Of a stretch of 64,000 bases of DNA, positions 1 through 52,683 are shown piece by piece. Source of the stretch: Bilabrum cf. latius (Eukaryota). Below the pieces are notes generated by a model. That model was given only the letters and a program-made list of their open reading frames with translations, did not search any database and was not told the DNA's origin. How positions within the stretch are numbered: the stretch's first letter is position 1; every line of letters begins with the position of its first letter. The DNA lies in NCBI GenBank assembly GCA_965178125.1, contig OZ237754.1, positions 124,001-188,000 on the forward strand, written 5' to 3'. A program made the position numbers and the translations under genes.

Positions 1-1221
1 CTCTTCCTCCCTCTAGTTGGAGGGTAGCCCTGGGATGGCGGCAGGGGAAGGAGGCCAGGCGATCGGCGGGCTGCCCTGCCCGGACTGGACGAGGGGAGGC
101 GTGGCATCTGCCTGCACGAGCGGCACCTGGCTGGGGGTGCGGCTGGGTCCTGAGGCTGCGGTGTAGGGTGAGGATCCTTGTCCCACGGGCTCCGCACCGG
201 CCTCTGACTTGTTCTTCAAGTTCGCGTGCCCCGGGGTGCCGCCACCCACTGCCTGGTTCCCTGGACCGCTGGCATGCTCCACTGCCTGGTTCCCTGGACC
301 GCTGGCATGCTCCACTGCCTGGTTCCCTGGACCGCTGGCATGCTCCACTGCCTGGTTCCCTGGACCGCTGGCATGCTCCACTGCCTGGTTCCCTGGACCG
401 CTGGCATGCTCCGCTGCCTGGTTCCCTGGACCGCTGGCATGCTCCGCTGCCTGGTTCCCTGGACCGCTGGCATGCTCCGCTGCCTGGTTCCCTGGACCGC
501 TGGCATGCTCCGCTGCCTGGTTCCCTGGACCGCTGGCATGCTCCGCTGCCTGGTTCCCTGGACCGCTGGCATGCTCCGTTATGTCACTGCCCTCGGCAGA
601 GGCTGTGCGGCACACTGGCAGGCAGCCAGCGTGGATCGACCACAGCACTAAGAATGTAGCACCAATGCCGACAGGAAATACAGAGCTCCACCCAAGCACC
701 GGTCTCCAGCCCAAGTTTTCCACAAGGACCGCAAGCGGTGCCTGGGCGAGGAGGCTGCCAGCGAGCCCGAACATTATGCCCGCACCGGTCATTGTGCTAG
801 CAAGGCCGCTTGCTTTGAAATGCGTCTCGCTGAGCGTCACAACTCCAATCCAAGCTCCACCGACACCGGCGCCGACTAGTCCTCGAGCAGCTGCCGCCAG
901 TGCAAAGGAGCTCGTGGAGGCAAACCCCAAAGAACCAAGCGCTGCAGCGAACGCACAGCCTGCAAGTACGGGCAGGTGTCCGAAGCGCTGAAAGGCCCAC
1001 CCACATGGCAGCTAGACTGCAATATACGCATAGAAATACGTGGAGGAAAGAACGCCAACGGCGGAGCTATCAATTTTGTAGGCGAGCTGCAGGTCGTCCG
1101 ACACGACCGAGGGCGCCACTCGCTGGAAGAAACTATACGTAAAGAAAAGGGATGCAACCAGCCATGCTACCCAAATATCAAGGGGTGGGAGGTTCGATGT
1201 CGAGCTGCTCGTGGCTGCCAT
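1..1221 (-). CDS. MFS transporter, 3'-partial (runs off the left edge); in-frame TAG at 1012 and 13
   Basis: ORFs 1012..1221 and 13..930 are in one frame, joined via TAG: ...FFQRVAPSVV...STYFYAYIAV*LPCGWAFQRFG..., matching the MFS TM2 motif Y-x3-Q-x-P-x-G-x4-RFG; hydrophobic TM segments follow. Confidence 0.85.
246..575. repeat. Coding minisatellite, 10 x 33 bp (EHASGPGNQA[A/V]) in the MFS central loop
   Basis: Unit cc(a/g)ctgcctggttccctggaccgctggcatgct; 5 copies of each variant, in two blocks. Confidence 0.97.
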
Positions 1222-1540
1222 TATGTGGCTAGATTCGATTGCACAACTGTGTCCGTCATCGCTTCGTCACACACCGTGTGACGGCTCGGGGACACACTGT
1301 GGCCAAGGCCGCCAGCGGGCGTGATTGGCGACTTGTCCACCCCTGTGCAGAATAACCATTGCGGCCTAGAATATATCTGCATCGCAGGAGCCATTGACAA
1401 GGTAGCCTCGTTGCAACCATGATCACAGCATGATGGCAATTACTCTGACCACCCCCGGCCAATCCTCGCGCACCTTTGGGGTGCTGTCACTGCTGCACAC
1501 CCGAGCGCAGTATCGCAAGGCCGCACACCCTTAGTGCGGC

Positions 1541-4500
1541 TTATGACCCGCCCCTCCTGCGCCTCACCTCATCCGCGGGGTCCACCTCGGCCCCCGGCTG
1601 CAGCTGCTGCAGCACGCCCACCTCGATTGGAAGGTCGCCGGGCCCCTGCGGCTCCACGCTCCTCCCGTCCGTGAAACCGACCAGCTTCCAATCAAGCTCC
1701 GCCTTGTCACCCTGGAACACCGGCACGCGCAGCCGCCTCAAGTACGTTCCGCTGCGGGGGCACAGCATGCGCAGCGCCCGCGTCCTCCAGCCCATCTCGG
1801 ACTGGTGGTAGGCCATGCCAGGGATGCCCTCCACCTCCTCGTGGCGAGAGGCGTGCTTGGGCTGCTGGATCGCAGTCATCAGGTCCGCCTTGGTGGAGGC
1901 AAAGCTCAGCGCCGGATACGAGAACAGGCTCTGCACCCACACGTGCCTTCCCCTCCACCGCAGGCCCCTCCACGTGCTGTGGAAGGGGTGGATCTCACGG
2001 ACCCGCTGGTGCTCGAGCAGGGCCCGCCCAGCCGACTCGCCCTCACCAATCGTCACACCCGCCTCTTCCTGCAGCCACGACCGGATCCCCTCGACATCGG
2101 GAAGGTCTGGCTGCACCGCATACGGGGTCAGGCCAACGTGCGGCCGCAGTGAAAGCAGCAGGGCAGCCGCCGGCCCTCCCCATCGCAGCACCGCGGTATC
2201 GCGCAGCGACGTGCGGCCCAGCAGCTGCTCCCTGCCCCCGGCCGCGGCCTCGAAGGCCTTGCGCCCGCCCGCGATCAGCAGCCACTGGGCATACCCTCCC
2301 GCCTTCTGCGCGTCCCGCAGCGGCCCCGGGCTCTCGAAGTCGTCGCCAGGCTTGGCGAACCTGCACCAGGCAGAGCGGTAGAGCGCGTATGCCTCTGCGA
2401 AGGACCGCGGGACGGCCCTGGGATTGCCTGCACCGTCTGTGTCCCACTCAGTGGCCGCCTGCAGCCGGCTATCGACTGCCTGCTGCTCTTTCTTGGCTGC
2501 ATCCGAGGCCCCGCTGGCCGGCTCGGTCCTGCCGTCCGGGCTGCAGCCAGAATCGGTCAGCATGCGGTCCCGCAGGGTCGCAGCGGCCTCACCTGCAGAT
2601 TCCTCCTCCTCCTCCTTTTCCTCCCCGTCATCCTTCGAATCCTCGTCCTCACCATCGGCCATGCGCCACCAGCGCAGCGCCTCCTCTGCCCTCTGCCTCA
2701 TCTCTCCCCCATCGGTCTTGCCTCCCTGCAGGGCATGCTCCAGCTGCTCCAGGTCGCGACGGACGCACGCCGCATCTGGGGCGGGGCGGGACACGAGAGC
2801 GCGCATCCCTGCTGCTACGGGCCCCACCACCGCCCCCACGACGGTCTGCAGCCTCCTGAGCTGCCCGGCCGTGTACCGCACCAGCATGCGCCGGTACAGG
2901 AACGGCAGCGTCCTCCACTGAAGCACCCTCCTGGCCTCTTCCTAGTCCATGGGAAGGTCCGCAGCTGTCTGCGGGCCGTCCTCGCCGCCCTTGCCATTGT
3001 TCCCTGCTCGCCGCGCCTCCACCCTCCTGTCCACTTCCCGCGCCATCTCCTTGCTCTCGAAGGCGTGCACGTCCTCCACCGCCAGCTCCTCGCTGTCGGC
3101 GTCCAGCCAGTCGCCGTCGTCCATGGGCTCGTCGAACTGGTCCGAGGGGAAGCAGTCGCCCGCGTCGTCCTGTTCCCTGCCTCCATCCGCACCGGAGCCA
3201 GCGGCCCGCCCGGCAGCCGCCGCCCCATCCACGGCAGCGTAGAACGCGCCCGCCCTGCGAGCGGCCAGCCGTGCCATGTCGCGCGCGAATGCCACGAAGC
3301 TCCACAGCGCCTCCAGGTCTTCCTCCGTGATGGAGTGTGACGAGTGCGTCACCGTTCCCTCGAAGATCCAGGTGAGGTTCTCGGGCCCCCAGACCTCGGG
3401 CCCGCCCAGCCGGTGGGAGGGCAGCAGGTGCCTGGCGGTGCTCTCGTGCAGGTCGGGGTCCTGGCTGCGCCTCACCGCGGGCATGTGCGTGCCCATCCTC
3501 TCCTTGTGCCAGTAGTGGCCCGTGCGCGACCACTCCACGAAGGTGGTGGGGCGCAGGTAGTACAGCGAGGCGCGGACCCAGTCGGGCGGCGTGCTGGGGT
3601 CCGGGAAGGGCACGCTGTAGAAGAGCCGGTTGACGGGCTCGGCCGCGCCAAGGCACAGCCTAGCCTGCAGCCTCGCCCACACGCTCGAGTTGCTGGGCCC
3701 GTAGGTCCCCAGGTTGCCTCCCACGGAGAATACGTCGGAACCGTTGTTCCCCAGCGGGTCGTAGAAGATGGCCTGGTCCAGCCGCGGGTGCACGGGTGCC
3801 ACGAAGGGCGGCGTGCTCTTCTCATCCGTGGCCATGAAGCGGTACCTGAAGGGCCTCCACTTGAGCCCGCAATCCTCCTCCTCTGGATCCAGGTGCCTGG
3901 GGGCGGCCCCCAGCCTCTGCTCCTCATCATCATCGTCGTCGCCATTGTCGAGGGCGCTGTCTGCTTCCGTGCTCCGGCTCGAGTCGTCATCGTCACCTTC
4001 TTCCTCTTCGGCACCGCCTGCAGCCGCACCCCGGCGGCTGTCTCCGGCCGGCAGACCCGGCGCCTCGTCCTCCCTCGCTCCCTCGAAGACAACCACGTAC
4101 CTGGACGCTGGGTTTGCGTGCGGAGGGAACACACCGTACGCGTGGACGATGCGAAAGGGCTGCCAGAACCGGATCCAGTTCCTGAGGCCGCGCATGAAGG
4201 TGGGCCACTGCTCCAGCGAGGGCCAGTGCATCGCGGATAGTGTCACCCACGAGTTCAGGATGAAGAGGACCAGGAACGCAGGCAGGATCACGCCCAGTGC
4301 CACTGCGAGGAGCAGGGGCACCGACAGGGCCCGCGCGTGCACGACCACGGACCACAGGGCAGAGAAGAGCCCCCCCTCCGAGCCGGCTGCGGCGATGCTG
4401 GACCACGCCTGCGAAGGCAGTACGAGGCCGGTGGCGGCGGGGGTGGCGCCCAGCACGCAGTGGCTCCAGCGGGCAGTGAGGCTGTCCCGCCAGTCGAACA

Positions 4501-5476
4501 GCGGGATGCTTAGCACCGCGGTCAGCAGGTTAAAGTACCCGAAATTTCCCGTGAAGTGGATCCCGAACTGCAGTGCAATGAGCCCCAGCCCCGCGAGAAC
4601 CCTGGGCCAGCCCTGGAAGAAGGCCAGAAAGGGCACGGGAATCTCGATGATGAACATTACGAGCAGATTCACAATGTGCGCGGGGGCGGGGAGCGCGTTG
4701 TAGGCGGCCCAGCCCAGCAGGTTGGTCATGGGCATCCCTATGAAGAAGTTTTTGATGTACAGCTTGTCCCTCGGAGTGGTCCCTATGAACTTGAGCTTCC
4801 CAAACCCGACCATGAGCCTCCACAGCAGCATCCGCATGAGGAAGCTCACCAGCGGGTGCGGCAGGCTGGCAGCCGCGAGCGAGTCGGAGCGCAGCGGCGG
4901 CAGCCACATGGCAAGGAATGAAAGCTCCAGCGCGAGGGTGTCCCAGGGGAATGTTAGGCCCATCGGGACGTCCATCGAGAGCAGGCACACCCACGACACG
5001 ACGAGCAGGGCAGGGCTGCTGGCACCCCCGAATACCGCGACGTGCAGACCAGACAGCGCCCCCACAGCGGCCACCAAGTGGAGCATAAGGTCGGAACTGT
5101 TGATCCAAAACACCGACGGTGCGTTCAAGAACGCGTGCCACTGTGAGGGCAGGTCCTTCAGGGCACGCTTGAGGATGTCCCGCAGCGGACTCGCACCCCG
5201 CGCTCCCGCCCAGGGACCCACTTGAGGCAAAAATGTACCAAAGATCACAAACAAGACTGCACCAAAGCACCGAATAAATACCCCCCACACGAGCTCCGGT
5301 GGGATGCTCGTGAAGCTCTGCATCCCGATCCATGCGGGGTTCAGCCAAAGAGCAGTCCCATTCAGGGCATCTGGCCCGTTCTGGTCGATCAAATACGCAT
5401 TTTCATGCGTAGCGCATGTTGACACGTCGAGTGCGGGTCCTCCTATGGCGGCAACAAGGGCATCAATATACTCCAT
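1541..5476 (-). CDS. Lipase maturation factor (LMF) family membrane protein with a long C-terminal extension; in-frame TAG at 2942, stop TAA
   Basis: Motifs FPWDTLALE, RLMVGFGKLKF, TGNFGYFNLLT, AYGVF, APVHPRLD; ORFs 2942..5476 and 1541..2926 are in one frame. Confidence 0.88.
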
Positions 5477-5740
5477 TTCAATCCCTTAACTGGGAGCTGG
5501 CGCAGTAGGAAGAGGAGTTAACTCTGAGCTTCCAAAATCCGGGAAAAGCTCTGCGTAGCGCTAATAAACAGCTCCACACTGCGTATTGGGCGGCAAGCGT
5601 GGCAGCTAGTGGACAGCGAGGGACCCAGTCAGCGGAGGATCAACTTTACCAGAGCCAGGGTGACGTCAGCAGCACGCTACTTCTCGCTGCACTGTTCGTA
5701 ACTAGCAGTCACATGCAAATACAGATGTATTATGCGCCAA

Positions 5741-8700
5741 TCACGATAGATCCGACTCGAAGCCGTCATCTCGCTCGCTTTCGTTCGATCCGAGCGAGTG
5801 GAAGTCCAAGTCGACGTCCCCGAGCCCCCCACCAGCGGGTGAGCGTCCGAAGGCGGCACCGCGAGGCGCGTCCAACCGACCCCGGGCATCACCAGTTGTA
5901 TCATCAGAACTCGCTGACTGCATTCGCTGCCGTCCCACCAATGGAATTCCACTCCTGCCGAACGAAGACGCACCCTCCGCGGGACCCCCAGCCCCGGCAC
6001 CATAATCGTGCACTGCACCCTGCAGAACCACCTCATCGCCCAGCTCCCCTGAGGCGTCCAAATCTCCCGACCTGTCCAGCCCGCTGCTGTTCCCTGGATC
6101 CCTCCCACTCCTCACGGGCGACTCCGCCGCCGCCTCGCCCTCGGGGATCGCTTGCGGGTATGCCACCGGCTGCCGACTGGCCTGCTAGATGAGGGTCCCG
6201 TGGTGCCGCGCTGCGTGGACGGCGTGCAGCTGCGCCCGGGCGCTGGGAGCCCCACCTCCTCCAGTGCCTGGGACCGCCCCCGCGGCAGAAGCAGGAGAGC
6301 GCCAGCCCATGCCCGGTCCCGGTCCCGGGCCGGCCTCGCCCCACCGTCCACTCGAGATCTCAACGCTTCCGAAGGAGGAGCGGGGCAGGCGTGCGTCTCC
6401 CCCCTCACTCGTCAGGCGGTTATACGCCCGCGAGTCCCCCCCAGGTGTGCCCCTCCCAGGGGTGCCTCCCCCGACCCCGTGCCCATTCCCATTCCCATCT
6501 CTATCCCCATGCCCGACCACTGGGCTCCTCCGGGCAACAGGGGATGCGGGCGAGGAGCCTGTACCCATGGTGCCCATGGTGCCCATGGTTGGGGCTGGCC
6601 CTGAGTCGCCCTTGGAGGAGAGGGCGCTGGCTGGCCGGGGCCGTGCCTGTGCCTGTGCCTATGCCTGTGCCTATGCCTGTGCCTATGCCTGTGAGGGGGA
6701 CACCTCCTCACGTTGGGCCCTGCTATAATCATCGAGCTGGATATCCTCACACTACCCGCTCTCCTCTCCTTCAGGAGGGCTCCCAGGGACACCGCCGCTG
6801 CCGCTGCTCTCCACCCCCGGAGGCGGGAGTAGCATAGAGCGCCCCCCCACCCCCGGAGGCGGGAGTAGCATAGAGCGCCCGCCCAGCGACTGCATCGAGG
6901 TCTCGCGGCCTGCTGCGGCGACCCCTGCCCCACCTGCCGCTGGGCGGACAACACCACCTCCACCACCACCGTGTGGATGTCCCCAGACCGACCCGGAATG
7001 ACTCGTTTCGGCCCTGTCACGGGCGGTGCTGTGCCCTGGAGCACCCCCTGCCTGCAACCCCCTGCCACCGTCCATCTCTGCCTCCCCTGACCCGTGGGTC
7101 GCAGGCCGGCTCACCACGCTCTCACCCGGGATTGACCACGCGCTCGAAGCGGCGCCCCCCACAGGGGTGTGGCGCCCTCGGGCACGACTGCCGAACAGAG
7201 GCATCCCCACCGGCCCCTGGCCCTGCCCCTGGCTGTCCGCAGAGGTGCCCGCACCGCCCGCCCATGCGACCTGTCCAGCCGCCGCTACCTCGCTCACGAA
7301 AGTCTGCCCGCGGATGCTCTTCCGAGCCTGCCTGCTGCGGCGGCGGCCTAGCCGCTCTCTCGGCTGCGAGTAGGAGAATCCACCAATGGATGGAGCCACC
7401 GAGGAGCCCCGACGACCGAGCCCTCCGGGCGCGTCGCTCACGAATGACTCCACGGGCACGGCACCCGCTGGCTGCGTGCCGCCAGGGGCGTTCTGCTGCT
7501 GGCTGTGCTGACCCGCACGAGCACCAGCGCCCATCGGGGACTGCAAGGCAGAGAACCTCGCAGTTCCTGCGGCAGGGACAGAGGACACCAACGCGGGAGA
7601 TCCCATAGGCACGGCATTGCGGTGCTGCCAACCCGTGGTCTAACCCGCGAATCGCCGCTTGCTTATCCCCGCAGACACGGGCATGCTTCCCACACGCATG
7701 TCGAACGGCTCCCCCGGGGCACCCATGTTCCCATCGCGCATCCCGCCAGGAGCTGGCATGCTGCCCACCGCGGGCTGCATCAGATCATCCACCCTCCCGC
7801 TCGCCGCGTGCTTTTGCATGTCTGCCACACGCGCAGCCCCGGGGCCCCCGTCCAGCGGGACCGAATCCATCCTGGCCACCAGGCTAGGGTCATGGCGCAG
7901 CGAGCCGGGCCAGAAGGAGGAGCCCGCGGGAACCGACTCGCTTGCCGCCCAGTCGCGGTGAGACACAGCCACGTCGGCATCGGAGCCACGGCCCGGGGCG
8001 GGGATCCCTCCGATGGGAGTAGCCGCAGTACCCTGCCACCCCGAGGCTCCCGAGGCACCCTGCGCCTGCTGCTGATCGGCTGGGCTCGCGGGCAGGGCCG
8101 TGCGCCGGGCCCCTGATTGCGGGATCATCACGGCGCTGGCACCCGAATGTACGGGCGGGCGGGCCAAGCCATACCCCTGCACGGCAGCGGCCGATGCAGC
8201 AGCCGCAGAGGCGCCTGCGTAGCTCTCCGCAGATCCAACCAAAGGGTCATACCGGCCTTCCGCAACATCCCCCTATGCATAGTCGACATGATGTGACGTC
8301 AGTTCCGCAGCCGCCGCCTCCGCTGCTTTCCGCGCTTTGCGGGCCGCATCATCCGCAAGCTCCGAGACCACCAGCTCGGCCACCTGAAGGCGGAGCTGGA
8401 GCTGGCCCACCTCCACGATCCGGGGCGCCAGCGCCAGCGAGGCAGTGTTGCAGCTCCACTTGGTGCGAAGCATGAGCTGGCCGTGGTGCACGTACCTGCG
8501 AAGATCCGCGAACCGCCGGGTCAGGCGCAGCACGGCGGGCGGCAGCCTCAGCTTCTCCCCCTGCAGGCGGTCTTGCAGCTCCTGCTGCTCGGGGCCCGCT
8601 GCAACCGACCGTGAGGTGCTGTAGCTGCCGACCGAGTCCGCATCGGGGTGCCAGGGTCGGTGCAGCCCCCCTACGGCTGATTGCGCGCTGCCTGGTTCCT

Positions 8701-10023
8701 CTCGCTGGTACTAACGAGCGGGGGTGCGGAACAGCATCGAACTGCCGCCCGTCGAGGAGGAGGAGGGGGGGGCGTTCACCGTCGGCGTGCGGGGCGAGGA
8801 CAGGTCTGCAGCGCCGGATTGCTGCCGCAGCGACCCCGATCCTGCAGCCCGAGCCGCATGGCCCGAGCCCCGCGCGCCAGCTTCAGCCTCCCTACCACCG
8901 CCCGCCCCGTCCTGCGAGCTGTGGTAGTGGGCCGACCCACCCGGCCCCTCTGAAGCACCTCCCTGGTCCTAGTCCTCTTCGTCCGCAGTGCCACCAGTGC
9001 CCGCCGAAGCAAGGCTGGTGTTCCGCAGGTGTCCGCTTCCGCGGGTCCTGCCTGCCCGGCTGCCTGCGCCTCTCGTCCCAGTAGACCCGGAGTCTGCCAC
9101 CGAGCCAGAGGCGGCCCGTTGGTGCCTACTTCCAGGGCTGATGCCGCGCGCGTACCGCACCCCGCCGCTGGCTCCCGCCCCGCTGTCCCTGTCCCTGTCG
9201 TCCTCCAGGGTCACTGGTCTAGAAGTAGCGGTGGCGCGGGAGACCACCCTGGATCGCTAAAAGGCGGAGGCCTTGGGGGAGGCCCCGGAAGCAGGGCCGG
9301 CCCCGCTCCCGCTGCCCTGGCGAGGACTCTGTATGCGCTGTCCCCTAGGAGACCCCTTCACGGCGACTGCAGGGCTAGCTGGCGGAGGGTTAGCATGCTT
9401 GCCAGCCTGATCACGACCCGGCCGCAGCAGCAGTCGAGGCACCGTGGGCTTGTCGCGGTCTCGTTCCCCCTTGATCGAGATGCTTAGCTTTGTAACAGCG
9501 GGGGCGGCTCCACCGGACTCGTGTGCGGCATGCGTGCTAGAGCCGCCCTGGCTGCCCAGCTCCGCATGCTCTGCCGCACCTGCGCTTGAGCCTGTCCGCT
9601 CGTGCCTGTGCGTGCTGGCCGTCATGGCGTCCCCTGTGCGGGCCAGGGTCTTCACCAGCGCAGGGGTCGGCAGCTTGGCAAGTCTCTTGAGGCTGTCCAC
9701 CCGCCTCATCGCGGAATTCCCCTGCCCTTGCTTCCTGGCGCGCAGGTCCAGTCCAGTGGCGGGAATGGCCTGGGCGCCCTCCATGGCCCGCATGAGGTAC
9801 TCGGGCGCGGGGAAGAGAAACCCCATCACGGCCGCGACGCGGTTGGAGCTGTGGGGGTCCAGCGGCATCACGCGCAGGTCCAGGGTGTGCCTCAGTTCCT
9901 GCAGTGCACGGACCTTGACGGCCCACTTGCGGTCGGCTTCCTCCCCCCTGCTGCTGGGGCCACTGCCCTAAGTCGAGCCGCCCCCTTGGCTGCCCGAGCC
10001 ACCGTGCCTGGCGCCGCTGATGA

Positions 10024-10054
<31 letters not shown>

Positions 10055-13000
10055 TCGAACTGCGATCTCGGGCATCCTGCTTCCGCCACCGATGCCAGCG
10101 CCCACGGACGAGCCTCCACCCACGCTGGAGCCGCCCGTGCTGCGCGCCCCCGGCCACCCGACCCTGCCCTTGCTGCTGCTCCTCGCCAGGGCAGAGACCT
10201 CTCTCGCTTCTCGCATCATCTCGTGTGCGGCAGCACCGCCGTAGCCCGCAGTGCCCTCTACAAGCTCTGGCTCGCCGTCTCGCCCTTTGAAGGCGCCTCC
10301 TTTCGTACTCGTCACATCGCTGTTCTCCACGCCCTCAAGCCTGTCCGCGATTGCCACCAGCTGCAGATAGGTATCCAACTTCACTGCGGCCCGAGGACTC
10401 TGGGGGGGCCGGGCCCCTGCAGTGCGCTGCATCCCCGCGGGTGACCTCCCCAGCCGAGGGCCCACGGCAGTGCCTCCTCCTCCCCCGCCTCCATAGCCCG
10501 ATGCACCCGTGCCATAGGACCTGGCTCTCTGGGCCGGAGGGGCGGTCCGCGGGGTGCCTCTGCTGCCACCCACGAGCGGGCTGGCGGCAGTGGGCCTGCT
10601 TGCTCCACCGGTAGATGGCACGGCCTCAGTGGAGTATCCCCCCGGGGATGGCGCCCCTCCCCCATCGCCCCCACTGTCCCCGCCCCCGCCTCCGAGGGAG
10701 AAGAGGCTGCCCACGACTTCCCCTAGCCACTCGATGGCCCGATCCCCGGGCATCTTTGCCTGCTCCGACTCTTCGGGCGTGACGAACCGGCGCTCTCGGT
10801 CCGGGCGGGGCATTCCCCTGGCCCCCCCAGCGGTGGGGGACACCACGGGCTGAGGACCACTCGTCACAGTGCTCGCCTGTCTCCAGTGGGCCGGGACGGT
10901 ACCCGGTGCTCCATACCCGCGGCGCACTGCAGTGCGATGCATCGACGGCGTGGCGAACGCAGGGTCACCGGGACCCCTCCTGCCCATCCCTCGGGGGGAG
11001 GAGAATCGCTGCTGCCCCGGCGTGTGGGTGACACGCAAGGGGCGATCATGCTGAATGCGATCGTGCTGGTGCTGGTGCTGGTGCTGGTGCTGGTGCTGGT
11101 GCTGGTGCTGGTGCTGGTGCTGGTGCTGGTGCTGGTGCTGGTGCTGAGCGCCACGCGTGGTCGTGCGACCTCTGCCCATGCCCCTCCTGCCCCCCGGCTG
11201 CGGCGATAGCTGTGCCGTCACCCGGCTGCCCCCACCCGCCGGGCTGCGCCTCGGGTGCACCATCGTGCCGTGCACCCAGGTCCGTTGCATGGACCGGGGA
11301 CCCACAGACGACCGCGGCCCCACCCCAGTGCCACCCCTCGGCGCCGCCGGAGACCCGCTTCCTCCCGCTCCCGCTGCAGTTGCTGCCTTTTGCTTGGGCA
11401 CGGGACGGATCCCCCACCTCCTGTCCGCGCACAGAGGAGAGGCCTCTGCTCTCCTCTCCAGCTCTGCCCTGACCCAGGCCTCTGCCTGCTTGAGGGCCCC
11501 TCGCAGCACGTGCATGGCCATGGCGCGCCAGTGCAGTCGGGCGATGGCTCTCAGCTCCCCTGCCACCCAGTCCACGTCGATCCCGATGGAGGGGAGACCC
11601 TCGCTGCCGCTGCCTCGGTCGCTCTCGGCTTTCTCGCTGCCCTTCTCCACCGCATGCTCTGAAGGATCCCACGGCAGGTCGGCACCAGCCGAGGGACCCC
11701 TAGATCGAAGGATCCGACCTGCAGTGGAGGCTGCCAGCGGATCGCTCGATGCCTGGCGCTTGCCCCCTGACCCTGACTGGCTTTGGGGCACTACGCCTGA
11801 TATATCGGCATCGCCGGGGGCAGAAGCAGAAGAAAAGACGCCGTCCTGCTTTGCTCCAGAACCAGCACCAGCACCAGCACCCGACCCGGCTTCCCCGGCG
11901 GCCTCCGTCAAGGAGCGGGGGGACACGTCCGCCACCCGGTCGACGAGCGACTCCCGCGCCGACGACTCTCGGGTGCTCCTCTGCAACGCCCCCACCACCC
12001 CCCGCTGCTGCTGCTGCTACTACTGGGGGGGGTTGCCGCCTGCGCCCGTCGGAGGCAAGCCCCCGCGGCCGTCCCCCCGCCCGCGCGGCGCCCCCACCCA
12101 CGGCCTGCCCTCACCCCAGTCGTGCAGTCGCCTGCACAGCGCCTACAACCTCCTGACGCACTCCGCATCCTCCGCCCTCGCCCGCGCCGCAAGAGCCCTC
12201 CGGAGCCCCTTGAGCTCCTGGGAGGCCAGCTCGTCCCAGCGGTTCTGCTGGTGCAGCTGCCTCCTGAGGCGCGCCAGCTTGCGACGCACCGCTTTCACCC
12301 GCCTGCCACAGGCCAGCCTGAGCCCCGGGAGGTGCTCCACGGGCGCCATCTGGGCGTGCCTCTCGAGCTCCTGGCCCGCGACCTGCTCCAGCTGCACCGT
12401 GTCCATCGACTCGACCGAGGAGGACGAAGAGGAAGCCACGGAGCCTACAGCCGACTTTGAGCGGTGTCTTGCACGCTACCCTTGGGTGTTGCTCGGCTGG
12501 GCAGTCCCCAGGGACTGTTCGGGGAGGTTATCTGTCAACGCACCGTCGATGACTGGCGCCCGACCCGCTGACGCCGCGATCGTAGCGGGGCCGTCGTTTC
12601 CGGGCACAGCGCCACCATTCACCATATCAGAGTTAATGTGCTGGCTTGTGCTTTCTTTTGGCGCCGTAGTGGCCCCTGCAGGCGAACGGGCGCCGTCGCC
12701 AACGTCAGCCTCCCGAAGCTGCTGGAACAGGGCTCGAGTCACCGGAAGGGATGGAAGTCCGCCACTTGAAGGCCCTAGCTGCTCAGATACTTGTGAAGAT
12801 AACCCGCCTGGCGCATCTTGGCCTGGAGAGGCAGCCGCAAGCGATGCGTACCATTCCCCCTCTTGCGCTGCCGATTTAGTCACGCGGTCAACGTCCCAAA
12901 GCTAAGGCGCTTGCCGCTTCCCCGCTTTACAGGTGGTCTCAATGCGCGAACCCAGCCTCTATTCATGGCCATATTGCGGCCTTGGATAGTCGGTCGGCAA

Positions 13001-13276
13001 GTCTGTCGAGAGCTTCGCTCGGCGAGGCGAGACCGGCTTGCTGAACGGAGCTTGGGCACCCATCGACCTTGCCTCGGCCCTACTAATTCTGTTGCAGTAC
13101 CCTCCAGCTGTGGCTAGAACTACAGATGGTGCGGCCCCGCTGAGAGATCGTCGCCGTGGGTGCCCACGGGCCTTCGGCGAAACATTGGCTGCCTTCGGTG
13201 AGGCCCCACCAAAGTCGAGAGCGCGCGGCAGCACGTCGGCGTGTGAAGCAGCCCTCGCCCTGTTCACTGTTGACAT
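5741..13276 (-). CDS. Large (~2500 aa) low-complexity protein with short coiled coils, function unknown
   Basis: Eleven track ORFs (12959, 12476, 12143, 9968, 9257, 8969, 8273, 7640, 6752, 6185, 5741) share one frame; every internal stop is TAG and the terminal stop is TGA. Confidence 0.8.
11063..11146. repeat. (GTGCTG)14 microsatellite encoding a (QH)n tract on the minus strand
   Basis: Perfect hexamer run seen directly. Confidence 0.95.
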
Positions 13277-13459
13277 GATATCAGCAAGCAGAAAGGTTTG
13301 ATTCCATCGCTATTCAGCTGGAGTGTGTCCCACGCCACACCTGCCCACGCCCTTGAGATGATGACGATCCTGCCTGCCAAATTGGCACTGAAAGGACCAC
13401 ACCCATAGCTGCGTGCCAGCTTGGCGTCGTCAAAATAAGTGCATAAATCGTTTTCAAAG

Positions 13460-15260: not shown

Positions 15261-18200
15261 TCACAGCTCATCGGCACCACTGCGATCGTAGTACCCCGCC
15301 CCATCGTCCATCTGCTGCTTCTCGCGCACCTTGGCAGACAGCCTCTCGCGCATCGACTGGGCCTTCTGTCGGCGGGCCTTGCTCCTGGCGCGATCGGCGC
15401 TGCTGCCACTGCCCTGCCCCTGCGGCCCCAGACCCCTCTTTGCCCTCCTCTCCTCCCTCTCCCTCGCCCTCTCCTCCTCCTTGGCCTACTTTTGCAGCCT
15501 GCCCTGCACCGATTCTTCCAGCCGAGCACGGGCCCGGCCCCTCGTGATAGAGGCCTCCCGTTGCCGCTTTCCTTCGCTCGATGCGTCAACCTCCACCTCA
15601 GCCTCGAAGAGGTTCCGGCCAACCGCCAAACGATCCACCCGCCGCGCCCACCGGTAGTACTCCTAACCGTCAGTGCCGCCCGCGCCTCCCTCACTCGTCA
15701 CACCACCTGCCCCACCAGAGGCGGTGTAGCCCCCACCCCTGGCCACCCCATCCCCGGCCCCACCTCCGGCAGCGCGCCGCAGCACCCGGGCCCGCATGCC
15801 CTTCCGCCGCTGGGTCTGCTCCATCGACTCCCCGGTGTGTCCTCTAGTCGCGAGCCCAGCCCCGCCCATGGACCGCTCATCTGCCCCGAGGGCGCGCAGA
15901 AACTCGTCCGTCCCCCTCCCCGTGCCCTACCCCTACATTGCGCGGCGCCGCGCGGAGCGGAACGCGTCCTTCCGGATGTAGCCAGTGCTCGGGTCGTATT
16001 GGTTCAGCCACGGCTGCAGCTCCCGGGCCAGCGCAGTGCCCGCCCCGGCAGAGGAGCCGGTCCCCATCGCGTCCATCAAAACCTTGCGGTCCTGGGCGGA
16101 CCCCAAACTCCCTGCTTTCCACCCCTGTGAAGAAGATGATGACGAGGCCCCGCTGCCCCCACCGTGGATCGAGTGGCTCGCGCCCAGCTGCTTGGCTGCC
16201 TGCAGGCCGGCGCTCGACCTAATGCCCTGCGGGGGCAACCCCTTGGCGATCCGAAGCGCAGTGCAATACACCCGACGAATCGTCGCTTCGACGCCATCCC
16301 CAGCACCCGCAATGCCGTGCACCTGGGCAGCATGCCTGCGGGCAGCCGCCTGCACGGCCAGCCCGCGCATGCGTGGGGCGCCTGAGAAGCCCTCTGTCTG
16401 CACGGACGCAACCAGCCCCGCTGCCGCCGGCCCAGTGTCACAAAGACCCTGCAGCTTCTGGCACGCGCTCACATAGCCCCCCTTGCACCCCTAAAGCAGC
16501 TGGGGGGCGCTTCGCCTCGCTGCCTGCAGCGAGCCCGTCATGGCCATGGCGGGGCCTGCCCCGTCAAGCACAGCCCGCACCCTGTCGATCGTGGTGGGCA
16601 GCGCGGCCCCGGAGGGAACCTAAGCATTGCCGTGCGATGCACCCAGCGCGGCCTCTATGGCGGTTCTCTTCGCCTGCACCATGCTGGCCCCACCGCAGGA
16701 CCCCACGTCGCCCATGTGGCACCCCTGCAGGAGCGCCCGCTCCGCTCGGTCCAGGTCCCTGCGCATCGAGTCTCGTGCCACAGCAATGCGATGCAGCAGC
16801 ATGTCTGCCAGCCCCCCCGCGGGCTGGGTGCTGCCCGTCGTGCCATTTTCCTCCTCCTTCTCTCCCCAGCCACCAGCACCGCCCTCGCCTTCTTCGCCTT
16901 TGTCCACCTGGATCTCCATGGCCATGTCGATGGCACCTCTCGCGGCGCGGGCCTGCCTCGCACCCGCCCTCTCCGACCAGTAGACCCCTGCGGTCTGGCA
17001 GGCACGCACCCGCTCTTCTCGACTCACAGACACCATCGACACCTGGGGCAGCTGCAGACCAGCACGGTTCGCCGCGCGCTTGTTCCTCTGCTGGTGCTGC
17101 TGTGTCTGCTTGTCGCGATGCTGACTACCACCCGGCAGACGCACCTTGACCGCGTCCTGGCCACGCCTGCCGCCCCCTGATCCGCCGGTAGCCCCATGCA
17201 CACGCACCTGCATGCCGCCCCCACCTGCAGCAGCAGCCTTGCCACCCTTACCGCTGGCCACCTTCCCGCGCAGGCACGCGCCCTCTGCCCTCTGAATGAC
17301 CTCCCGCTGTGCCTCCATCCTGGCCTTGTACTGAGCCTTCTCCTTGGCTGTGTACGCCGCCACCGGGTCCAGCGCCTGCCCCTGCCCCTGCCCATTGTTC
17401 TCCGCCCCCCTCCCCCGCGGGCCGGACCGCCACTCACCACCGTCACCGTCCTCACTGAGGCCCGGATCCCGAGTGCCGCCCGCCCACTCCGCCTGCCGCA
17501 GCCTGTGCTGGGCATCCCCGTCCCCTCCGCCCTGCCCCTTGTTCCTCAGGGCCTTTCGCGCCCGCATGCGGATCTGCATCTCTCTCTCGCTCATCGGAGG
17601 GGGCGCCGCGCCGAAAGCTGCGGAACCTAGCCCCGTGGCACGCCTCGCCGCCGCCGCCCGCTGCACCTCTCTCCGCACCACGCTCTCCTCGTCCGCTGGT
17701 TGCGCCGCCACCATCCCCACCAGCTCCTCGAGGGCGAGGTCACCTCCTGACCTGGGCCTGTCCCTTCGTCCCCTGCTGGTGGCCCGGTCCTTGTCTCCGC
17801 TCCTGACTGCATGAGCCAGCCGCGCGAGCGCGTGCTCCACCCGTGGATCCGTGGGATCGAGCGTATCCAAGCCCAGCTCGGCGGCGTGCTGGGCAGAAAC
17901 ACCGGCCTGCCCCAGCATGGTCTCCAGGTCTAGGGAGCCGTCGAGGAAGAAAGATCCTGCATCTGCTGCGCCGCGAGGCCCCCCGTACTCGATCTTCCCG
18001 GCTCCAGCGTCGGTAATACTATTAGCGATCCGTTGCTCGCTCCTCTTCTTCTTCTTGCCGGCCTTCCTGTCCATCTTCTCCTGCAGCCGGCGGAAGACCT
18101 CCTCCTGGGGGGGCATGGGGCCTGTGACACGGGGCCGCGGAGGGGGGGGGAGAGGGGGGGGGTTAACAATCGATGGGGGTGTCATGTGTGACGAATGCGC

Positions 18201-18875
18201 GACGGCCTCTTCGTCCCACAGACCCCCCTTGCCCGCCGATCCGTTTGCTACCGATTGCAAAGAGACGCGGGCGTCTGCATCCGCTGCCACACGGACGTCT
18301 CCGCCTGATGGGAACGATGAAAAGGCGGAGGAGGAGTCGCTCAGAGCCTGGCGGGCAGATTCCGTGGCTCTTCGCCTCTCCATCAAGCGCCTCCTTCTTT
18401 CTTCCGACTTCTGCTCTCTGGCCCTTGGGGCGCTCGCCTCATCGCCATCGGCAACAAGGGCTCCTGCGCCATAGGCTGCCTCGTCGTCTGGCATACCTGC
18501 GCGAAATAGGCTTCGTTGAAGCGTACCCTCGTCGTCTGCAGTGTCTACCTCGTCCTCGTCTTCCATTGGCCTCCACTTTGGTCGTGGCTGCGGGCGCAAG
18601 TTAACGCTCCCGTCCCTGACATCGATCGCGGCAATCGGGTGATTCCCGTGGCTATCTTCGTACTCCTCTAGGACATCAACGATTTCGTCCATGCTGGCCC
18701 GAATACGATCCTCTAGCGGTGCCTGTGGACGTTCCACCGCGGTTGGTTTTGTCCGAATCAGGCTTCCTCCTCTACCGGCACGATGTGGCGAGAGAATACG
18801 CTTTCCGGTTGCTGCCAACGGTATACAGGCGAGTACTGCGCATGCAATCAAATGTAATGTTGCGTGTCTGGGCAT
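15261..18875 (-). CDS. Probable ER-lumenal protein (~1200 aa): N-terminal signal peptide, C-terminal ADEL; in-frame TAG at 16620, 16491, 15933, 15927, 15663, 15486
   Basis: Starts MPRHATLHLIACAVLACIPLAATG; read-through frame ends ...YYDRSGADEL-TGA. Confidence 0.8.
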
Positions 18876-21739: not shown

Positions 21740-24700
21740 ATGTCAGGAAAGCGATCGAAATAGTGGGTAGCGGGGCGTTCACGCAACGCAGCGGATAGGA
21801 GTCGGAGATTCCCCGACTTGTTTCCAAGGGTGTCTGCTCGTTAGTGGGTTCTTGTGGACGCCCATGACGGCAGTTAGATAGCAGGCTCTCGGTAGAGTAT
21901 TCCCGGGTGTGTTGCATCAATGACGAAGATCGCGGTTGCTCTAGCTGCCGTCAATCTTGCTCACGCACTGCCGGGCCTTCTGACAGACATCGTTTCAGTT
22001 TCTCACGAGGCTGCCCGCACGGTGGGAACCACTGCCCACCTCCGCACCGGGGATCGTCTACCACTTCGAGACCTCCTCGCTGGCCTGCTGCTTCCTTCCG
22101 GAAACGATGCGGGGCGGGCGATAGCAGAGCACTGCGGGGCTCGAGCGCTGGCGGCCGGGACCATCCCCCCAGCCCCTCCGCACACCAGCAAGCACGCCAA
22201 GTCCAAGGCCAAGGCCGTGCATAGCGTCTCTCGAGCTGAGCACAAAGAAGGCCGCCGCGCGCTCGTCCGCATGCTTCAGTCATCCGGTGTGCGGTCCAGC
22301 CGCAGGAGCCCTCGAGGATAGAGACGGCGCAGGCGTGGCGGGGCAAAGACAAAGTCCAAGGCAGGGGCAGGGGCAGGCTGTGTCAGGGGAAGGGGCAAAG
22401 GCACGCGTAGAGCCAGGGCCAGCCCCCGTAAGATCCAAGCACCGGCCCACTGCCACAGCCCGCCCTCCCCGCTGCGACTGCACGGCCCTGCCTCGTCCAC
22501 CAATGGCAAGGAGATGGGCACCACTGCCCGACAGCTGCAGTTCGAAGCAGCAGCACCTGGAGCCTCGCCGGATACTGGACCGCCCGGCGAGGACTCTACA
22601 GAGATCAGCGGGGGCTCCCCTCTCGTACGAGTGCCCAAAGAGCCCGTGGCTCCGGAACATGCTGGCGATCGGCAATGTGATCCGCGACACCGGCAACGAG
22701 AAAGTAGAGTAGTGGGCCGGGGCGGTGTTCCGCTGGACTCGCATGTAGCAGACGCAGCCGCGCATCACGCGATGACGAGCGCGCTGTTGTGTTCCCCGCC
22801 CCGCCCGCTGCGTGCCACCGCTGAGGCTGACGGGTCCTTGGCTATGACGTTCGGGCGGGGCGTGCCGGTGACTGCTGTACAGGAGAACGGCGAGAGCGAG
22901 AGCGAGGACGAGGACGGAATGTCTGCAAATGTTGCTGCTGCTGGTGCTGCTGGTGCTGCCACCAGAACCCAACCGAAACCGAGCAGCGCATCCTCGGGGC
23001 AAGAGCCGCAGCACGGTCAGCCGATAGAAGAACCGGCAACCGCTCCACCGACGGCATGGGCAAGGCTGGGCGCCTACACCGCAGATCGAATGCCGGCACG
23101 GCAGCATGTAGCAGCCGAGAAAAGGCGAGAAGATGGCTCCTCTGCCCGGCCCCCCTCCACCCCACCACGGCGCGAGCCCTCGGGGTTTGGCTTCGGCACG
23201 CCGCCGTCGGCCAAGCAGCTGTCTCCAGTGCCCAGCCAGGCCCCCCTGTGGCAGCAGCTCCTGGCCACCCCTGCGCTCCGGCGGGAATGCAGCCGAGCAT
23301 TCGTCGCCTACATGAACCGAGTGGCCAAGGCATGCGGGTGCACTGGGACCCAGTTCGTGAACCCGCATGGGTTGGACTCCCGACCTGCCACCAAGCACCA
23401 GAGCACGCCTGCGGACATCGCTAGGCTGTGCATGCGAGCCATGCAGTCGGAAGTCATCGCAGGCATCGTGAAGCGCAGGATGCACGGGTGCTGGGTGCAG
23501 CGGAGGGTCCGCGAGGCGAAGCTGGGCGCGCTGGTGCGCGACTGCTCCTGGACTGAGAAGACGAGGAGGCGCTTCGGTGGCGAGGACGAGGCTGCCAGCA
23601 GGGTGCTCGCCGGGGCGGACGGCAGCGCAGGTATCAGCAGCGGCGAGCGGGCTCAACCCAGTGCCGTGCCGCCTAGGTCTCCAGGCGCTATGAGCGGAGG
23701 AGCCCCCACCCCGCTGCCGCCGCGGCGAGTTGCCATGCAGCCGGATCGCAGGGTGTGGTGGCGGCTTCGCTGGCGCAACACCAACAAGCTTCTGGTGGAG
23801 AACCGAGAGGCATCCCCGGCGCACCACGTGCTGGGCTGCAAGACGGGTGTCACGCACGCGGCGGGGCCCTGCCTGTGCTCGGTCTTCGAGCGGGGCGGGC
23901 GCCGTGTGGTCTGCGTGGTGATGCGGTGCGGCAACAAGGACCGGCGGTTCGCGGACTCGAGCGCACTCGTGCGCTGGGCGTGGCACAAGCTGGGAGTGGA
24001 TGGACCGGAGCACAGCCCAGCGGGTCCGCTGGAGGGGCACGGGCCGCTCGCACCACTGTGGGACGAGGACGGCGGCTGGCCCTCGGTTCGAGAAGCGGAG
24101 CCTGCAGCAGCTGCGAGCACAACGCGACAGGGGCAGGCGCAGGGCCAAGGGCATGCAGGTGACTTGTGTGCAGTCGAGGCAGCAGTTGTGCGAGAGCATC
24201 AGGAGCAGGAGCAGGAGCAGGAGGGTGTCCCCGTAGTGTCTGACCCGGCAGTCTCTCAAAATGGTGGTCCCAATGGGTCAGCTAGAGACGCAGTAGATCT
24301 AAAGGAGGAAGAAGGCAGCGATGCCGGTGGGTTTTCATCCGATGGGGAAGGGGCGGAGGACGACGAGGACGACGACAGCGACAGCGACGGTGTTGCTATC
24401 GAAGCCGATGAGGAGGAAAGCCACACGGGCAGCGATTCCGAAATCGTCACTGAGGATGCCGATGCTAGAGGCCGCGCCTGCCTGTCAGGCGATGGGTGGG
24501 CTAGCAATAGCGAGGGCGAAGGCGATTCAGACGAGCCAGACCCGGATTCACCTAGGTGCAGCGTGCCATCATCTAGATCGTCATCGCCTCTCCGCGGCCA
24601 CTTGAAACCGCGGTCGTCTCCTCTTGTCTCGCCGAGACCAGCACCTAAGCAGCAGGCGCCAAATCCAAAACATGCTGCCTAGCAGCTGCGAGCCGGGGGC

Positions 24701-25906
24701 TAGCAGGCCGGCAGTTTTGAGCTGCCGCGAATAGATGGTGCCCTTGTGGATAATGGAGCCACATCCTCGACATCCGGAGTGGGTAACTCTGGTCACAGTG
24801 GCCCCGCGGCACCGTCCTCCCCGCGGCGCGTGGGGTCGCGGCGGGGGTTGCAGCTGCGACGATCCATCGGCAGTGCAGCTTCAGGGGCCAGCGCCGATGC
24901 CGATGCTGGCGGAATTCCGGCGGCAGACGCGCGAAGGTCAAGACCGACCGAGCAGCCGCGGAGGGACTTGCCCTCGCAGACCCGCCCACATGTTTCCATG
25001 CAAGCTCGAGCACTGGAAGGGCCCGCGACAGCAAGGGACTCACGACCGGTGCTGGTGCACGTGAGCAGGCTGCCTCTCGCAGAGCTGAGGACGGGGGACC
25101 AGCATGACCCGCTGAAGCGATCGGTGAGCTTTCACGGCCCACCCAGAGCGCAAGACGGGTATGCTGGCTCGGAGGCACCGGCGGCGTTGCGTGCAGGTTC
25201 TGCACGTGCTTCCAGGAGCGGTCGCCATATTGCATCACAGTGGGCTAGTGGGCATCGCGTGACGAATGCAAGGGGGCGACCTGGTGTGGGCTTGCCCAGC
25301 AGCATGGTGTCCGCTCGAGCTTCAGCACTAGGTGCGGGTCGATCCAGATTGCTAGCTCCCGCCGCAGATGCGGGCGTGGGTGCGGGTGTGAGGCGGGGGG
25401 GCAGCAGCAGCAGCAGCCTGCAGTCGGAGTCAGGGGGTGTGCCTTGGTCCTGGGCTGCTCCTCGAGACATGCAGGCAGTGGGCATGGGGGTATCTCGGGC
25501 TTTCGGAGCACCGGGGCAGGGGCGGGGTACTGACGGCGGGCACAGTCCGGCGAGTGCCAGAGCCGGTGGTGGTGGTGCCGCTGGTCAGGGCACCATTGCA
25601 AACGCGAGTGGGCTAGGTGGTGCGCAGTGGGCAGGCGTGCGGGCGGGATGGGGGCGCGGGATAGCAGTGTAGCAGCAGCAGCAACAGCGCTCTGGGCCGC
25701 AGCCCCGACTCGGTGTCCTCGGCGTGGTGCGCGTGCAGAGGCAGGGTGTGAGCCGCCTCCAGCGGACCAGGAGGCTCGTGGCCTTCAGCCGCAGCAGGAC
25801 ACGGATTGCTGCCGCAGCCTCGAGAACAGATGATGTGCAGTCGGCTGCGGCTAGCGCACGAAGTTTGGGGCCGCCTGGCTTGGTAGCTCGGAGGATGCAC
25901 AGCTGA
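21740..25906 (+). CDS. D-Ala-D-Ala carboxypeptidase (peptidase S11) family protein with large low-complexity insertions; in-frame TAG at 21761, 21842, 21875, 21893, 22319, 24680, 24701, 25670
   Basis: VSAR*WVLVD, ASMTKI (SxxK), LPSGNDA (SxN), MNRVA, FVNPHGLD, NTNKLL, GCKTGVT..AGPCL in one frame; stop TGA. Confidence 0.88.
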
Positions 25907-31840: not shown

Positions 31841-31849
31841 GATGGCAAT

Positions 31850-52422: not shown

Positions 52423-52683
52423 AATCTACCCTCTGTCCTTGAAGCGCCCATCCCTAGTTTCCGTTAGAGTCGACTGAGCCAAACGCGAGGATTTTCTTGC
52501 AATTGCAAGGTCTTGACGCGCAGCTAACCGAGTCTATTTTGGTCCATTTCGATTAGAGATTGATTTCATTCAGTTTGCGCAGTACTGTGCCTGAACGCTC
52601 ACTTCGGGCAGGTCTAATGTCATATTTGCTCGCAACAAAGTGCGAGCATGCATGCTGCTCGCCTCACTTTTCTGCAATCAGAC

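Follow-up and report, generated by a model that had tools for sequence, protein, structure and literature searches.

UAG as a very probable glutamine codon in the nuclear genome of a bicosoecid-like flagellate, with a candidate CUA tRNA and an altered eRF1

Background

Where nuclear genetic codes have changed, UAA and UAG nearly always switch meaning as a pair, and codes that uncouple the two are few. The fornicate Iotanema spirale reads UAG alone as glutamine and keeps UAA as stop (table 15; PMC5304391, PMC9161772), and the same table, with UAG not a stop, has been described for the ciliates Hartmannula sinica, Trochilia petrani and Protocruzia tuzeti (PMC11687900); these and the other papers cited by PMC number are drawn on for what their accessible text states. 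Here we analysed a 64,000-nucleotide stretch of DNA (the window; positions 124001-188000 of contig C20 in a 48.6-Mb assembly of 111 contigs, G000), in which an earlier note, made from the letters alone, had pointed to a minus-strand glutamine-alanine repeat where TAG alternates with CAG. Analysis of the repeat and of the assembly around it indicates that the nuclear code is almost certainly of the table-15 type, with UAG as Gln and with UAA and UGA as stops.

Iotanema is unrelated to the organism studied here, and its eRF1 carries T32G, whereas T32 is intact in the present genome (PMC5304391, PMC9161772). The Iotanema tRNA is only predicted, as a derivative of tRNA-Gln(CUG), whereas here a CUA tRNA gene with a Tyr-like body was identified (PMC5304391). 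In the UAG = Gln ciliates UAG is likewise a minority Gln codon (18.5% and 31.8%, against 11.5% here), and according to the accessible text no suppressor tRNA was detected in H. sinica and T. petrani, whereas tRNA and eRF1 are both readable here (PMC11687900). The present genome further differs from these ciliates in being GC-rich and in using TGA as its main stop. Dedicated CUA tRNA genes, as found here, are known from the TARA ciliates (UAG = Leu) and from PL0344 (UAG = Glu, UAA = Lys); those tRNAs are most like tRNAs of the inserted amino acid, whereas here the nearest is Tyr and the apparent meaning Gln (PMC11687900, PMC10553269). A parallel is offered by the glutaminyl-tRNA synthetase (GlnRS) of E. 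coli, which charges amber suppressors (CUA, U35) made from tRNA-fMet, tRNA-Trp and tRNA-Ser after small acceptor-end changes (PMC9976931). Those cases are laboratory mutants in bacteria, whereas here a natural, fixed eukaryotic code would be concerned. In the E. coli tyrosine suppressor, a change of A73 to G leads to Gln charging.

Cafeteria burkhardae/roenbergensis likewise has a GC-rich genome, mitochondrial UGA = Trp and AT-rich endogenous virophages (PMC6972860, PMC8547959), and the only variant code mentioned in the accessible text of the Cafeteria genome paper is the mitochondrial one (PMC6972860). The eRF1 of Cafeteria keeps ARGNGTS, TASNIKS, L69 and N129, unlike the one described below. 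No nuclear code variant in bicosoecids or other stramenopiles was found in the literature searched, most subscription journals and supplements lying outside its reach, and a term look-up in the accessible parts of a 2024 stramenopile review and a 2026 Halocafeteria genome preprint returned no mention of a nuclear variant. The same literature yielded no natural Tyr-derived Gln suppressor. The UAG = Gln code is probably unreported for this group; the codon table itself is already known (Iotanema, Hartmannula, Trochilia, Protocruzia; PMC11687900).

Results

In-frame TAG in conserved genes

The decisive evidence on the meaning of TAG came from homology. When 10-kb stretches were taken from 19 dynein heavy-chain genes on 12 contigs, 18 of them consisted of one open frame of 3,331 codons with 3-49 TAG each and neither TAA nor TGA; in the nineteenth the frame was interrupted once, at an intron-sized gap. 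For the alignment we masked each of the 277 TAG and, for ten control codons, a fifth of the occurrences chosen at random, and 149 homologues were used (150 were found, one at 99% identity being dropped), so that 192 of the 277 TAG were covered by at least 30 homologues. Gln was the consensus at 28 of 48 TAG columns conserved to at least 50%, at 18 of 26 conserved to at least 70% and at 8 of 9 conserved to at least 90%. The log-likelihood at the TAG columns was +136 for Gln, -61 for Glu and -86 for Lys. The masked controls returned their known residues (CAG: Gln in 52 of 59 columns; GAG: Glu in 84 of 91; TAC: Tyr in 63 of 80), and the share of Tyr was 0.018 at TAG columns versus 0.415 at TAC columns.

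On many contigs, essential genes are interrupted by TAG alone, without any TAA or TGA. In one actin paralogue (C14:636743-637840) TAG stands opposite CAG of another paralogue and Gln of a solved actin, and at another site of an actin paralogue pair AAG faces TAG. In 104 long open reading frames (ORFs; 550 kb), TAG was present in 97 and made up 778 of the 6,778 TAG, CAG and CAA codons (11.5%). The reading of TAG as Gln, proposed in the earlier note from the repeat, held on every nuclear contig sampled. A code in which UAA also means Gln (table 6) was rejected: the dyneins contain no in-frame TAA, and TAA terminates eRF1, H4, actins and dyneins.

Stop codons at conserved C-termini

All 35 distinct gene ends that could be fixed by conserved C-termini, a sample rather than a genome-wide count, were TGA (27) or TAA (8), and none was TAG. 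The ratio of TGA to TAA was 16/3 in dyneins, 5/2 in histones, 6/2 in the actin family and 0/1 in eRF1. In three dyneins a TAG occurs 15-20 codons ahead of the terminal TGA, and over the last 60 or 100 codons of the long-ORF set there was no shortage of TAG. Codes in which context decides between stop and sense (tables 27, 28 and 31) were considered and set aside, as their hallmark was not found; the sample leaves room for a small minority of UAG stops. As a separate observation, an actin-related gene (L273, C29:39955-41193) has one in-frame TGA, which lies in a stretch resembling an unspliced intron.

The glutamine-alanine repeat and the gene around it

The following features of the window, all on the minus strand, are concerned.

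6644..6691, minus strand: (Gln-Ala)8 repeat of CAG/TAG-GCA, with TAG at 6685-6683, 6673-6671 and 6661-6659
5741..13276, minus strand: low-complexity gene of 2,511 amino acids containing the repeat, with 17 in-frame TAG and no in-frame TAA or TGA, ending with TGA
11063..11146, minus strand: (Gln-His)14 repeat lying in frame in this gene, its Gln codons all CAG

The 48 bases read in the earlier note were matched exactly: eight codon pairs, each closing with GCA and opening, in order, with CAG, TAG, CAG, TAG, CAG, TAG, CAG and CAG. They lie in frame in the 2,511-codon gene, the three TAGs being codons 2198, 2202 and 2206 of the ATG-to-TGA frame 13276-5741. Across 5744-13429 each of the five other frames contains 21-38 TAA and TGA codons, and the longest TAA/TGA-free run spans 2,562 codons. 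After nucleotide shuffling (1,000 replicates) the corresponding run had a median length of 455 codons and never exceeded 974. The (Gln-His)14 run shows that Gln-X dipeptide repeats are normal for this gene. The protein matched no Pfam family, and no homologue search was made for it. We regard the repeat as very likely an ordinary Gln-Ala dipeptide run inside a long low-complexity protein, its TAGs being a third Gln codon.

Tandem Repeats Finder described the array as having a period of 12, 4.2 copies and 97% match; given this period and identity, the three TAGs are most simply a single C-to-T change multiplied by slippage. The earlier note had offered the alternation as homology-free evidence for Gln. 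Its conclusion stands, but its strength does not: the repeat alone is weak evidence, because it reflects one mutational event that is moreover silent in two other frames, as detailed below.

The enrichment of Gln next to TAG, which had been proposed as a check, was found only modestly and is partly owed to the repeat itself. Among 16 window genes (96 TAG in 17,521 codons), Gln occupied 17 of 192 positions at ±1 of TAG (2.05x, p=0.004) and 22 of 192 at ±2 (2.66x, p=3e-5), and neither Glu, Tyr nor Lys was enriched there. In a test for periodic runs, covering the 104 long ORFs and with a criterion too permissive to tell the candidate residues apart, TAG occurred in 23 runs with Ala as the flanking residue in 6 and Gln in 5; three of these five Gln sites are the repeat at 6644-6691. 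No RNA data set is listed as containing 5700-13400. Sequencing runs were placed on positions 1-20000 (three guessed to be RNA, X1 marked as probably DNA, one unlabelled). The longest listed pieces of X1-X3 mostly start and stop near gene ends; none of these longest pieces spans the repeat, and none shows differing letters. They could be no more than a faint indication that the 2,511-amino-acid gene is expressed.

A tRNA with anticodon CUA

C23:907607-907679, minus strand: tRNA with anticodon CUA and an intact cloverleaf, found with RF00005 (69.8 bits) and ARAGORN

This tRNA was the second-best RF00005 match in the genome among the candidates scored (63 of 780), and it is flanked by nuclear genes that themselves contain TAG. 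DNA and pattern searches, the latter of which intron-bearing tRNAs escape, returned no second CUA copy and no convincing UUA tRNA; the sole 'TTA' call, appearing at a relaxed threshold, is a poorly formed repeat.

Each arm of the CUA tRNA was set against those of 35 further nuclear tRNAs with a short variable arm, representing 16 amino acids, a set from which His, Leu, Cys and most Ser tRNAs are absent. The closest was tRNA-Tyr(GUA), with 43 of 62 scored positions matching and the next best reaching 37. The two agree in 6 of 7 pairs of the acceptor stem and in 4 of 5 of the anticodon stem (10 of 12), whereas pairs of tRNAs for different amino acids (n=561) reach at most 8 of 12. The C1-G72 pair of the CUA tRNA occurs only in tRNA-Tyr among the 35 tRNAs compared, and its 5-nt variable loop is Tyr-like. 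The D-stem is identical to that of tRNA-Gln(UUG) (4 of 4 pairs), with which G73 is also common; A37 matches both Gln tRNAs, G2-C71 is a move from Tyr toward Gln, and the Tyr determinants A73 and G34 are missing. Eukaryotic Tyr determinants are A73, C1-G72, G34 and U35, bacterial Gln determinants include G73, G2-C71, G10, U35 and A37, and amber suppressors with other tRNA bodies accept Gln (PMC9976931).

Since TAG is absent from Tyr columns, a working cognate tRNA must carry Gln. The CUA tRNA is thus a good candidate, and most probably the actual Gln decoder of UAG; its body suggests that it is probably of tyrosine ancestry, an amber suppressor turned Gln acceptor. In the mechanism that we propose, this single nuclear CUA tRNA would decode UAG, and UAA would stay free as a stop because C at position 34 pairs only with G. 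The tRNA would derive from tRNA-Tyr(GUA) by G34C, the classic amber suppressor, and the loss of the tyrosine determinants A73 and G34 together with the gain of G73, A37 and a D-stem identical to that of tRNA-Gln(UUG) would let GlnRS charge it.

A viral origin was rejected: twenty viral CUA tRNAs match the anticodon arm, and none has the acceptor stem (at most 4 of 8 positions). ARAGORN labels the gene 'Pyl', which we take to be its default label for CUA tRNAs; hundreds of UAG at Gln columns and a standard cloverleaf speak against a pyrrolysine system, whose synthetase was not searched for.

Some further features of the tRNA set were observed. Several CAT-anticodon tRNAs (L025, L035, L039, L047-L049; on C3, C5, C7, C9 and C25) are near tRNA-Pro(TGG) in body, and one of them lies 300 bp from the tRNA-Pro(TGG) at C3:1096678, an apparent second anticodon switch in the genome. 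The nuclear set also includes tRNA-Ile(GAT) and tRNA-Val(GAC) (L011, L044, L189), while the anticodons for Ala, Thr, Arg and Pro begin with A34; for eukaryotes, G34 is unusual in boxes of the Ile/Val type. A nuclear tRNA-His was not found in the tRNA searches of the assembly.

Release factor and glutaminyl-tRNA synthetase

C35: eRF1, four exons by GT-AG borders, 438 amino acids, two TAG, ending with TAA

The first TAG of eRF1 falls in a column with Gln in 82 of 86 homologues, the second at human L69 (82 Leu and 4 Gln). Since full-length eRF1 requires that both UAGs be read as sense, feedback could act. In human numbering the protein shows the changes R28K, G29A, N30D, I35V, S60V, L69Q, E107Q, F117P, L126M, N129S and K130H, and retains T32, S33, E55, NIKS, S70, Y125, C127 and F131. 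The eRF1 of Cafeteria and of Bicosoecida sp. CB-2014 has the usual residues at 29, 30, 60, 69 and 129.

As the third step of the proposed mechanism, eRF1 would now recognise UAG poorly, through changes different from the T32G of Iotanema, with N129S/K130H in YxCxxxF, L69Q, S60V, and G29A/N30D beside GTS as candidates. The best of these appear to be N129S/K130H and L69Q, because L69 and N129 have been tied to third-position G (PMC4381064) and because N129P was UAG-selective and K130 has been linked to the shape of the loop (PMC3632111). Several points tell against a causal role: T32, E55, S70 and Y125 are unchanged; L69Q occurs in 4 of 86 homologues, including the green alga Micractinium, plus wheat-type eRF1; N30A had no significant effect (PMC4381064); at position 129 only N129P was UAG-selective (PMC3632111); and the border of exons 1 and 2, on which G29A/N30D depends, was placed by GT-AG sites rather than by RNA. 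On balance we lean slightly towards the listed changes as the cause of a loss of UAG recognition.

The GlnRS gene (C33; L200:1012-3144) has no in-frame TAG over 877 codons. Its product shows only 7 changes at columns conserved to at least 85% among 118 homologues, none of them clearly tied to A36. In the FFGLAPG loop, presumably involved in anticodon binding, Val replaces Ala (Ala in 107 of 118 homologues), and two close relatives also have Val.

Phylogenetic position and relatives

The nearest named eRF1 is that of Cafeteria roenbergensis (69% identity), and Cafeteria was also the closest named relative in the GlnRS search. In single-gene trees the eRF1 grouped with Cafeteria (support 85/91) and, in a larger quick tree, with Bicosoecida sp. 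CB-2014 (Shimodaira-Hasegawa-like approximate likelihood-ratio test, SH-aLRT, 95), and the GlnRS was sister to a clade containing the Cafeteria cluster (SH-aLRT 98). With high confidence, the organism would be a bicosoecid (Bicosoecida, Bigyra, Stramenopiles); identities of 69% for eRF1 and 52% for GlnRS make its lineage distinct from Cafeteria at genus level. An 18S rRNA gene (1,700 bp) was found in an array on C12. The mitochondrial contig (C111, 38.4 kb; 38,401 bp) encodes a tRNA(UCA) and reads through TGA, and mitochondrial UGA = Trp is also known from Cafeteria and Cafileria (PMC6972860, PMC6723347). ARAGORN found 10 mitochondrial tRNAs on C111, fewer than the set given for Cafileria (PMC6723347). 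A second, different 18S rRNA gene (L054, C95:6099-7900, 1,802 bp) is on a short repeat-rich contig and seems to come from another eukaryote in the assembly. It looks dinoflagellate-like, as far as we can judge.

When 80 metagenome eRF1 loci were compared, L077 was the only close relative. It is 92% identical, with 99 synonymous codon differences in 236 codons, and ends with TGA. Its TAG stands opposite CAG in the present genome, and the code would therefore be older than the split of the two. Another locus (L119:1-1290) falls in a separate subclade of bicosoecid-like sequences; it contains two TAG in frame, of which one stands opposite Gln of the nearest relatives, and ends with TGA; its N-domain is strongly altered in the GTS and NIKS regions, and N129S is common to its subclade and the eRF1 described here. 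This locus possibly represents a second origin of UAG reassignment, a common origin, or a UAA-coupled code. Six more metagenome loci with stops inside the match, which were mixed TAA/TAG/TGA or lay in gaps, were set aside as introns or misalignment. Among the bicosoecid-like sequences there is also a group of eRF1s (P0004, P0006, P0007, P0008, P0391) with both L69Q and N129S, one member of which is labelled Symbiodinium sp. KB8 by its source.

Endogenous virophages

The genome contains 11 matches to protein-primed PolB above the cut-off. Three AT-rich virophage-like regions (L230-L236) were inspected.

C12:912310-927912: AT-rich virophage-like element
C22:747739-764948: AT-rich virophage-like element
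C27:613197-630549: AT-rich virophage-like element

They hold Sputnik-type major and minor capsid, protein-primed PolB and primase-like genes. In 29 ORFs, some of which are copies of one element, TAG was used 184 times, CAA 195 times and CAG 42 times, which is how usage should shift in AT-rich DNA if the codons are synonymous. Judged from these ORFs, the endogenous virophages use the same code as their host. No relatives of the endogenous polymerase and capsid were confirmed among the viral contigs searched. Cafeteria carries such virophages, thought to record giant-virus infection (PMC8547959).

Other genes of the window

Further genes of the window are listed below.

1..1221, minus strand: MFS transporter running off the window, with TAG at residue 70 within the MFS_1 match (25-190)
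1541..5476, minus strand: LMF1-family gene, 1 TAG, ending with TAA
13460..15205, plus strand: Prp4-like WD40 gene, its 3 TAG located between PRP4 motif and propeller, ending with TGA
15261..18875, minus strand: gene of 1,204 amino acids without a Pfam family, 6 TAG, ending with TGA
21740..25906, plus strand: Peptidase_S11-domain gene, 8 TAG, residues 35, 46 and 52 lying within the Pfam match (29-132)
29889-29962: tRNA-Arg(TCT)
38920..52569, minus strand: LRR/WW-domain gene of 4,549 amino acids, 43 in-frame TAG, no TAA or TGA
56541..57851, minus strand: RibD_C gene, both TAG (residues 174 and 181) within the Pfam match (36-210)

The Peptidase_S11 gene encodes a split D-alanyl-D-alanine carboxypeptidase domain of bacterial type in a eukaryotic protein of 1,388 amino acids. 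Near-perfect tandem arrays were seen at 249-578 (33 bp x 10), within the MFS gene, and at 31849-32298 (37 bp x 12), directly after a B-lectin gene. RCL1-like and pelota genes, both apparently intron-bearing, lie head to head at 60084-64000.

Discussion

Several observations do not sit easily with UAG as a plain Gln codon. Glu was the consensus at 6 of the 26 conserved TAG columns of the dyneins versus 2 of 59 CAG columns, and the TAG of L077 stands where most homologues have Glu. An excess of Glu is expected if TAG arose also from GAG, as in a young Gln codon, because TAG is one change away from GAG and AAG; the counts would likewise accommodate a partial Gln/Glu ambiguity of UAG. A code in which UAG means Glu, or a mixture of the two, is scarcely credible, however, given that GAG controls gave Glu in 84 of 91 columns, that Glu has a log-likelihood of -61 at TAG, and that the present genome itself has CAG at the L077 site. 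Near gene ends, TAG dips relative to CAA and CAG, to 5 : 70 in the last 30 codons versus 398 : 2,584 (p=0.12) and to 1 : 17 in the last 10, both shortages being non-significant. Taken at face value they would favour a dual UAG, read as Gln within genes and as stop close to the end of a transcript, the situation in the context-dependent codes of ciliates and trypanosomatids, but this is very improbable with no TAG among the 35 homology-fixed ends, with TAG shortly before the TGA of three dyneins and with no shortage over the last 60 or 100 codons. The neighbour test loses some of its force in that 6 of the 22 Gln at ±2 stem from the repeat and that the control codon TTG is also flanked by Gln at ±1 (22 of 288, 1.77x, p=0.007). 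For the repeat itself, exchanging C for T leaves the standard-code amino acid unaltered in a minus-strand (Arg-His)n frame of CAC/CAT, open for 232 codons, and also in a plus-strand (Cys-Leu)n frame of CTG/CTA, open for 214; codon usage near the repeat favours the Gln-Ala frame over the Arg-His frame only modestly (+4.9 vs -0.8 in 6415-6834, +10.0 vs +3.8 in 6193-7110), and the protein belongs to no Pfam family. Translation in another frame or an intronic position, both named in the earlier note as fatal to its reading, or a non-coding repeat would mean that it says nothing about TAG; this is hard to believe, since the Gln-Ala frame is free of TAA and TGA for 2,562 codons and is clearly favoured over the whole gene (+244 vs -142 to -457 for the others), within 500 bases upstream there is one strong donor-like site, and no placed run contig has a joint cleanly removing the repeat. 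That the TAGs are true stops or errors, in pseudogenes, through misassembly or with U-to-C editing of UAG to CAG, found no supporting point and has a negligible probability: only TAG, not TAA or TGA, interrupts the essential genes, a second species has TAG at an orthologous CAG, and the listed pieces of four runs, one of which may be the source of the assembly and whose RNA status is guessed, agree letter for letter with the gene.

The origin of the decoder is less firmly settled than the meaning of the codon. The CUA tRNA keeps C1-G72, whereas both Gln tRNAs of the genome have G1-C72, and the argument for Gln charging is a bacterial analogy, because the accessible text of PMC9976931 names no Gln determinants tested for eukaryotes. 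The D-stem agrees with that of tRNA-Tyr in just 1 of 4 pairs, which leaves some room for descent from a tRNA-Gln or for recombination. UAG would then equally mean Gln, and the likeness to Tyr would be due to convergence or gene conversion. The D-stem and G73 of tRNA-Gln(UUG), the A37 of both Gln tRNAs and the tRNA-Gln(CUG) origin predicted for Iotanema (PMC5304391) would fit such a history, yet we consider it, the chief rival of a Tyr origin, unlikely: the two Gln tRNAs agree with the CUA tRNA in just 1 of 7 and 3 of 7 acceptor pairs, versus 6 of 7 for Tyr, 35 and 37 of 62 positions match them versus 43 for Tyr, C1-G72 and the 5-nt variable loop are Tyr-like, and the acceptor stem recurs in none of the 20 viral CUA tRNAs whose anticodon arm is similar. 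Alternatively, once eRF1 ignores UAG, tRNA-Gln(CUG) might read it by first-position wobble, leaving the CUA tRNA as a silent or tyrosylated leftover. Two tRNA-Gln(CUG) genes do exist, and the CUA tRNA retains the eukaryotic Tyr determinant C1-G72; an expressed, Tyr-charged cognate would, however, place TAG at Tyr columns, where the Tyr share is only 0.018, and the CUA gene is intact, high-scoring and devoid of A73 and G34, which makes wobble decoding improbable. Taken as a whole, the explanation, a nuclear code with UAG as Gln that is served by a probably Tyr-derived CUA tRNA charged with Gln and by an eRF1 that would have become poor at UAG, is in our judgement highly probable.

A wider reading that joins these results falls somewhat short of being probable. 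The code would be the first nuclear code variant of stramenopiles, reached by an unreported route in which glutaminyl-tRNA synthetase took over a tyrosine amber suppressor through A73G, G37A and a D-stem of Gln type; on a tRNA-Tyr scaffold the codon would have passed from stop to Gln, with a Tyr or ambiguous meaning as a possible intermediate. As L119 may indicate, UAG would have been reassigned more than once in bicosoecids, or the reassignment would predate a single genus. Flagellates of this kind, bearing virophages written in the code, would be the hosts so far missing for giant viruses in which TAG means Gln.

Conclusions

As far as the literature searched reaches, the finding extends nuclear code change to stramenopiles. 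As tRNA, eRF1 and GlnRS all come from one contiguous genome, the question of how UAG alone escapes eRF1 becomes directly testable, and the parts suggest a route unlike the predicted one, with a Tyr-bodied tRNA and an eRF1 in which T32 is intact. A natural eukaryotic eRF1 that ignores UAG and yet stops at UAA and UGA is what amber-suppression engineering aims for. All giant-virus isolates come from hosts with the standard code, according to the accessible text of PMC13524828, and a flagellate lineage carrying virophages written in a UAG = Gln code would be a concrete candidate for a giant-virus host. In marine datasets, annotation with the standard code would truncate most long genes of this lineage.

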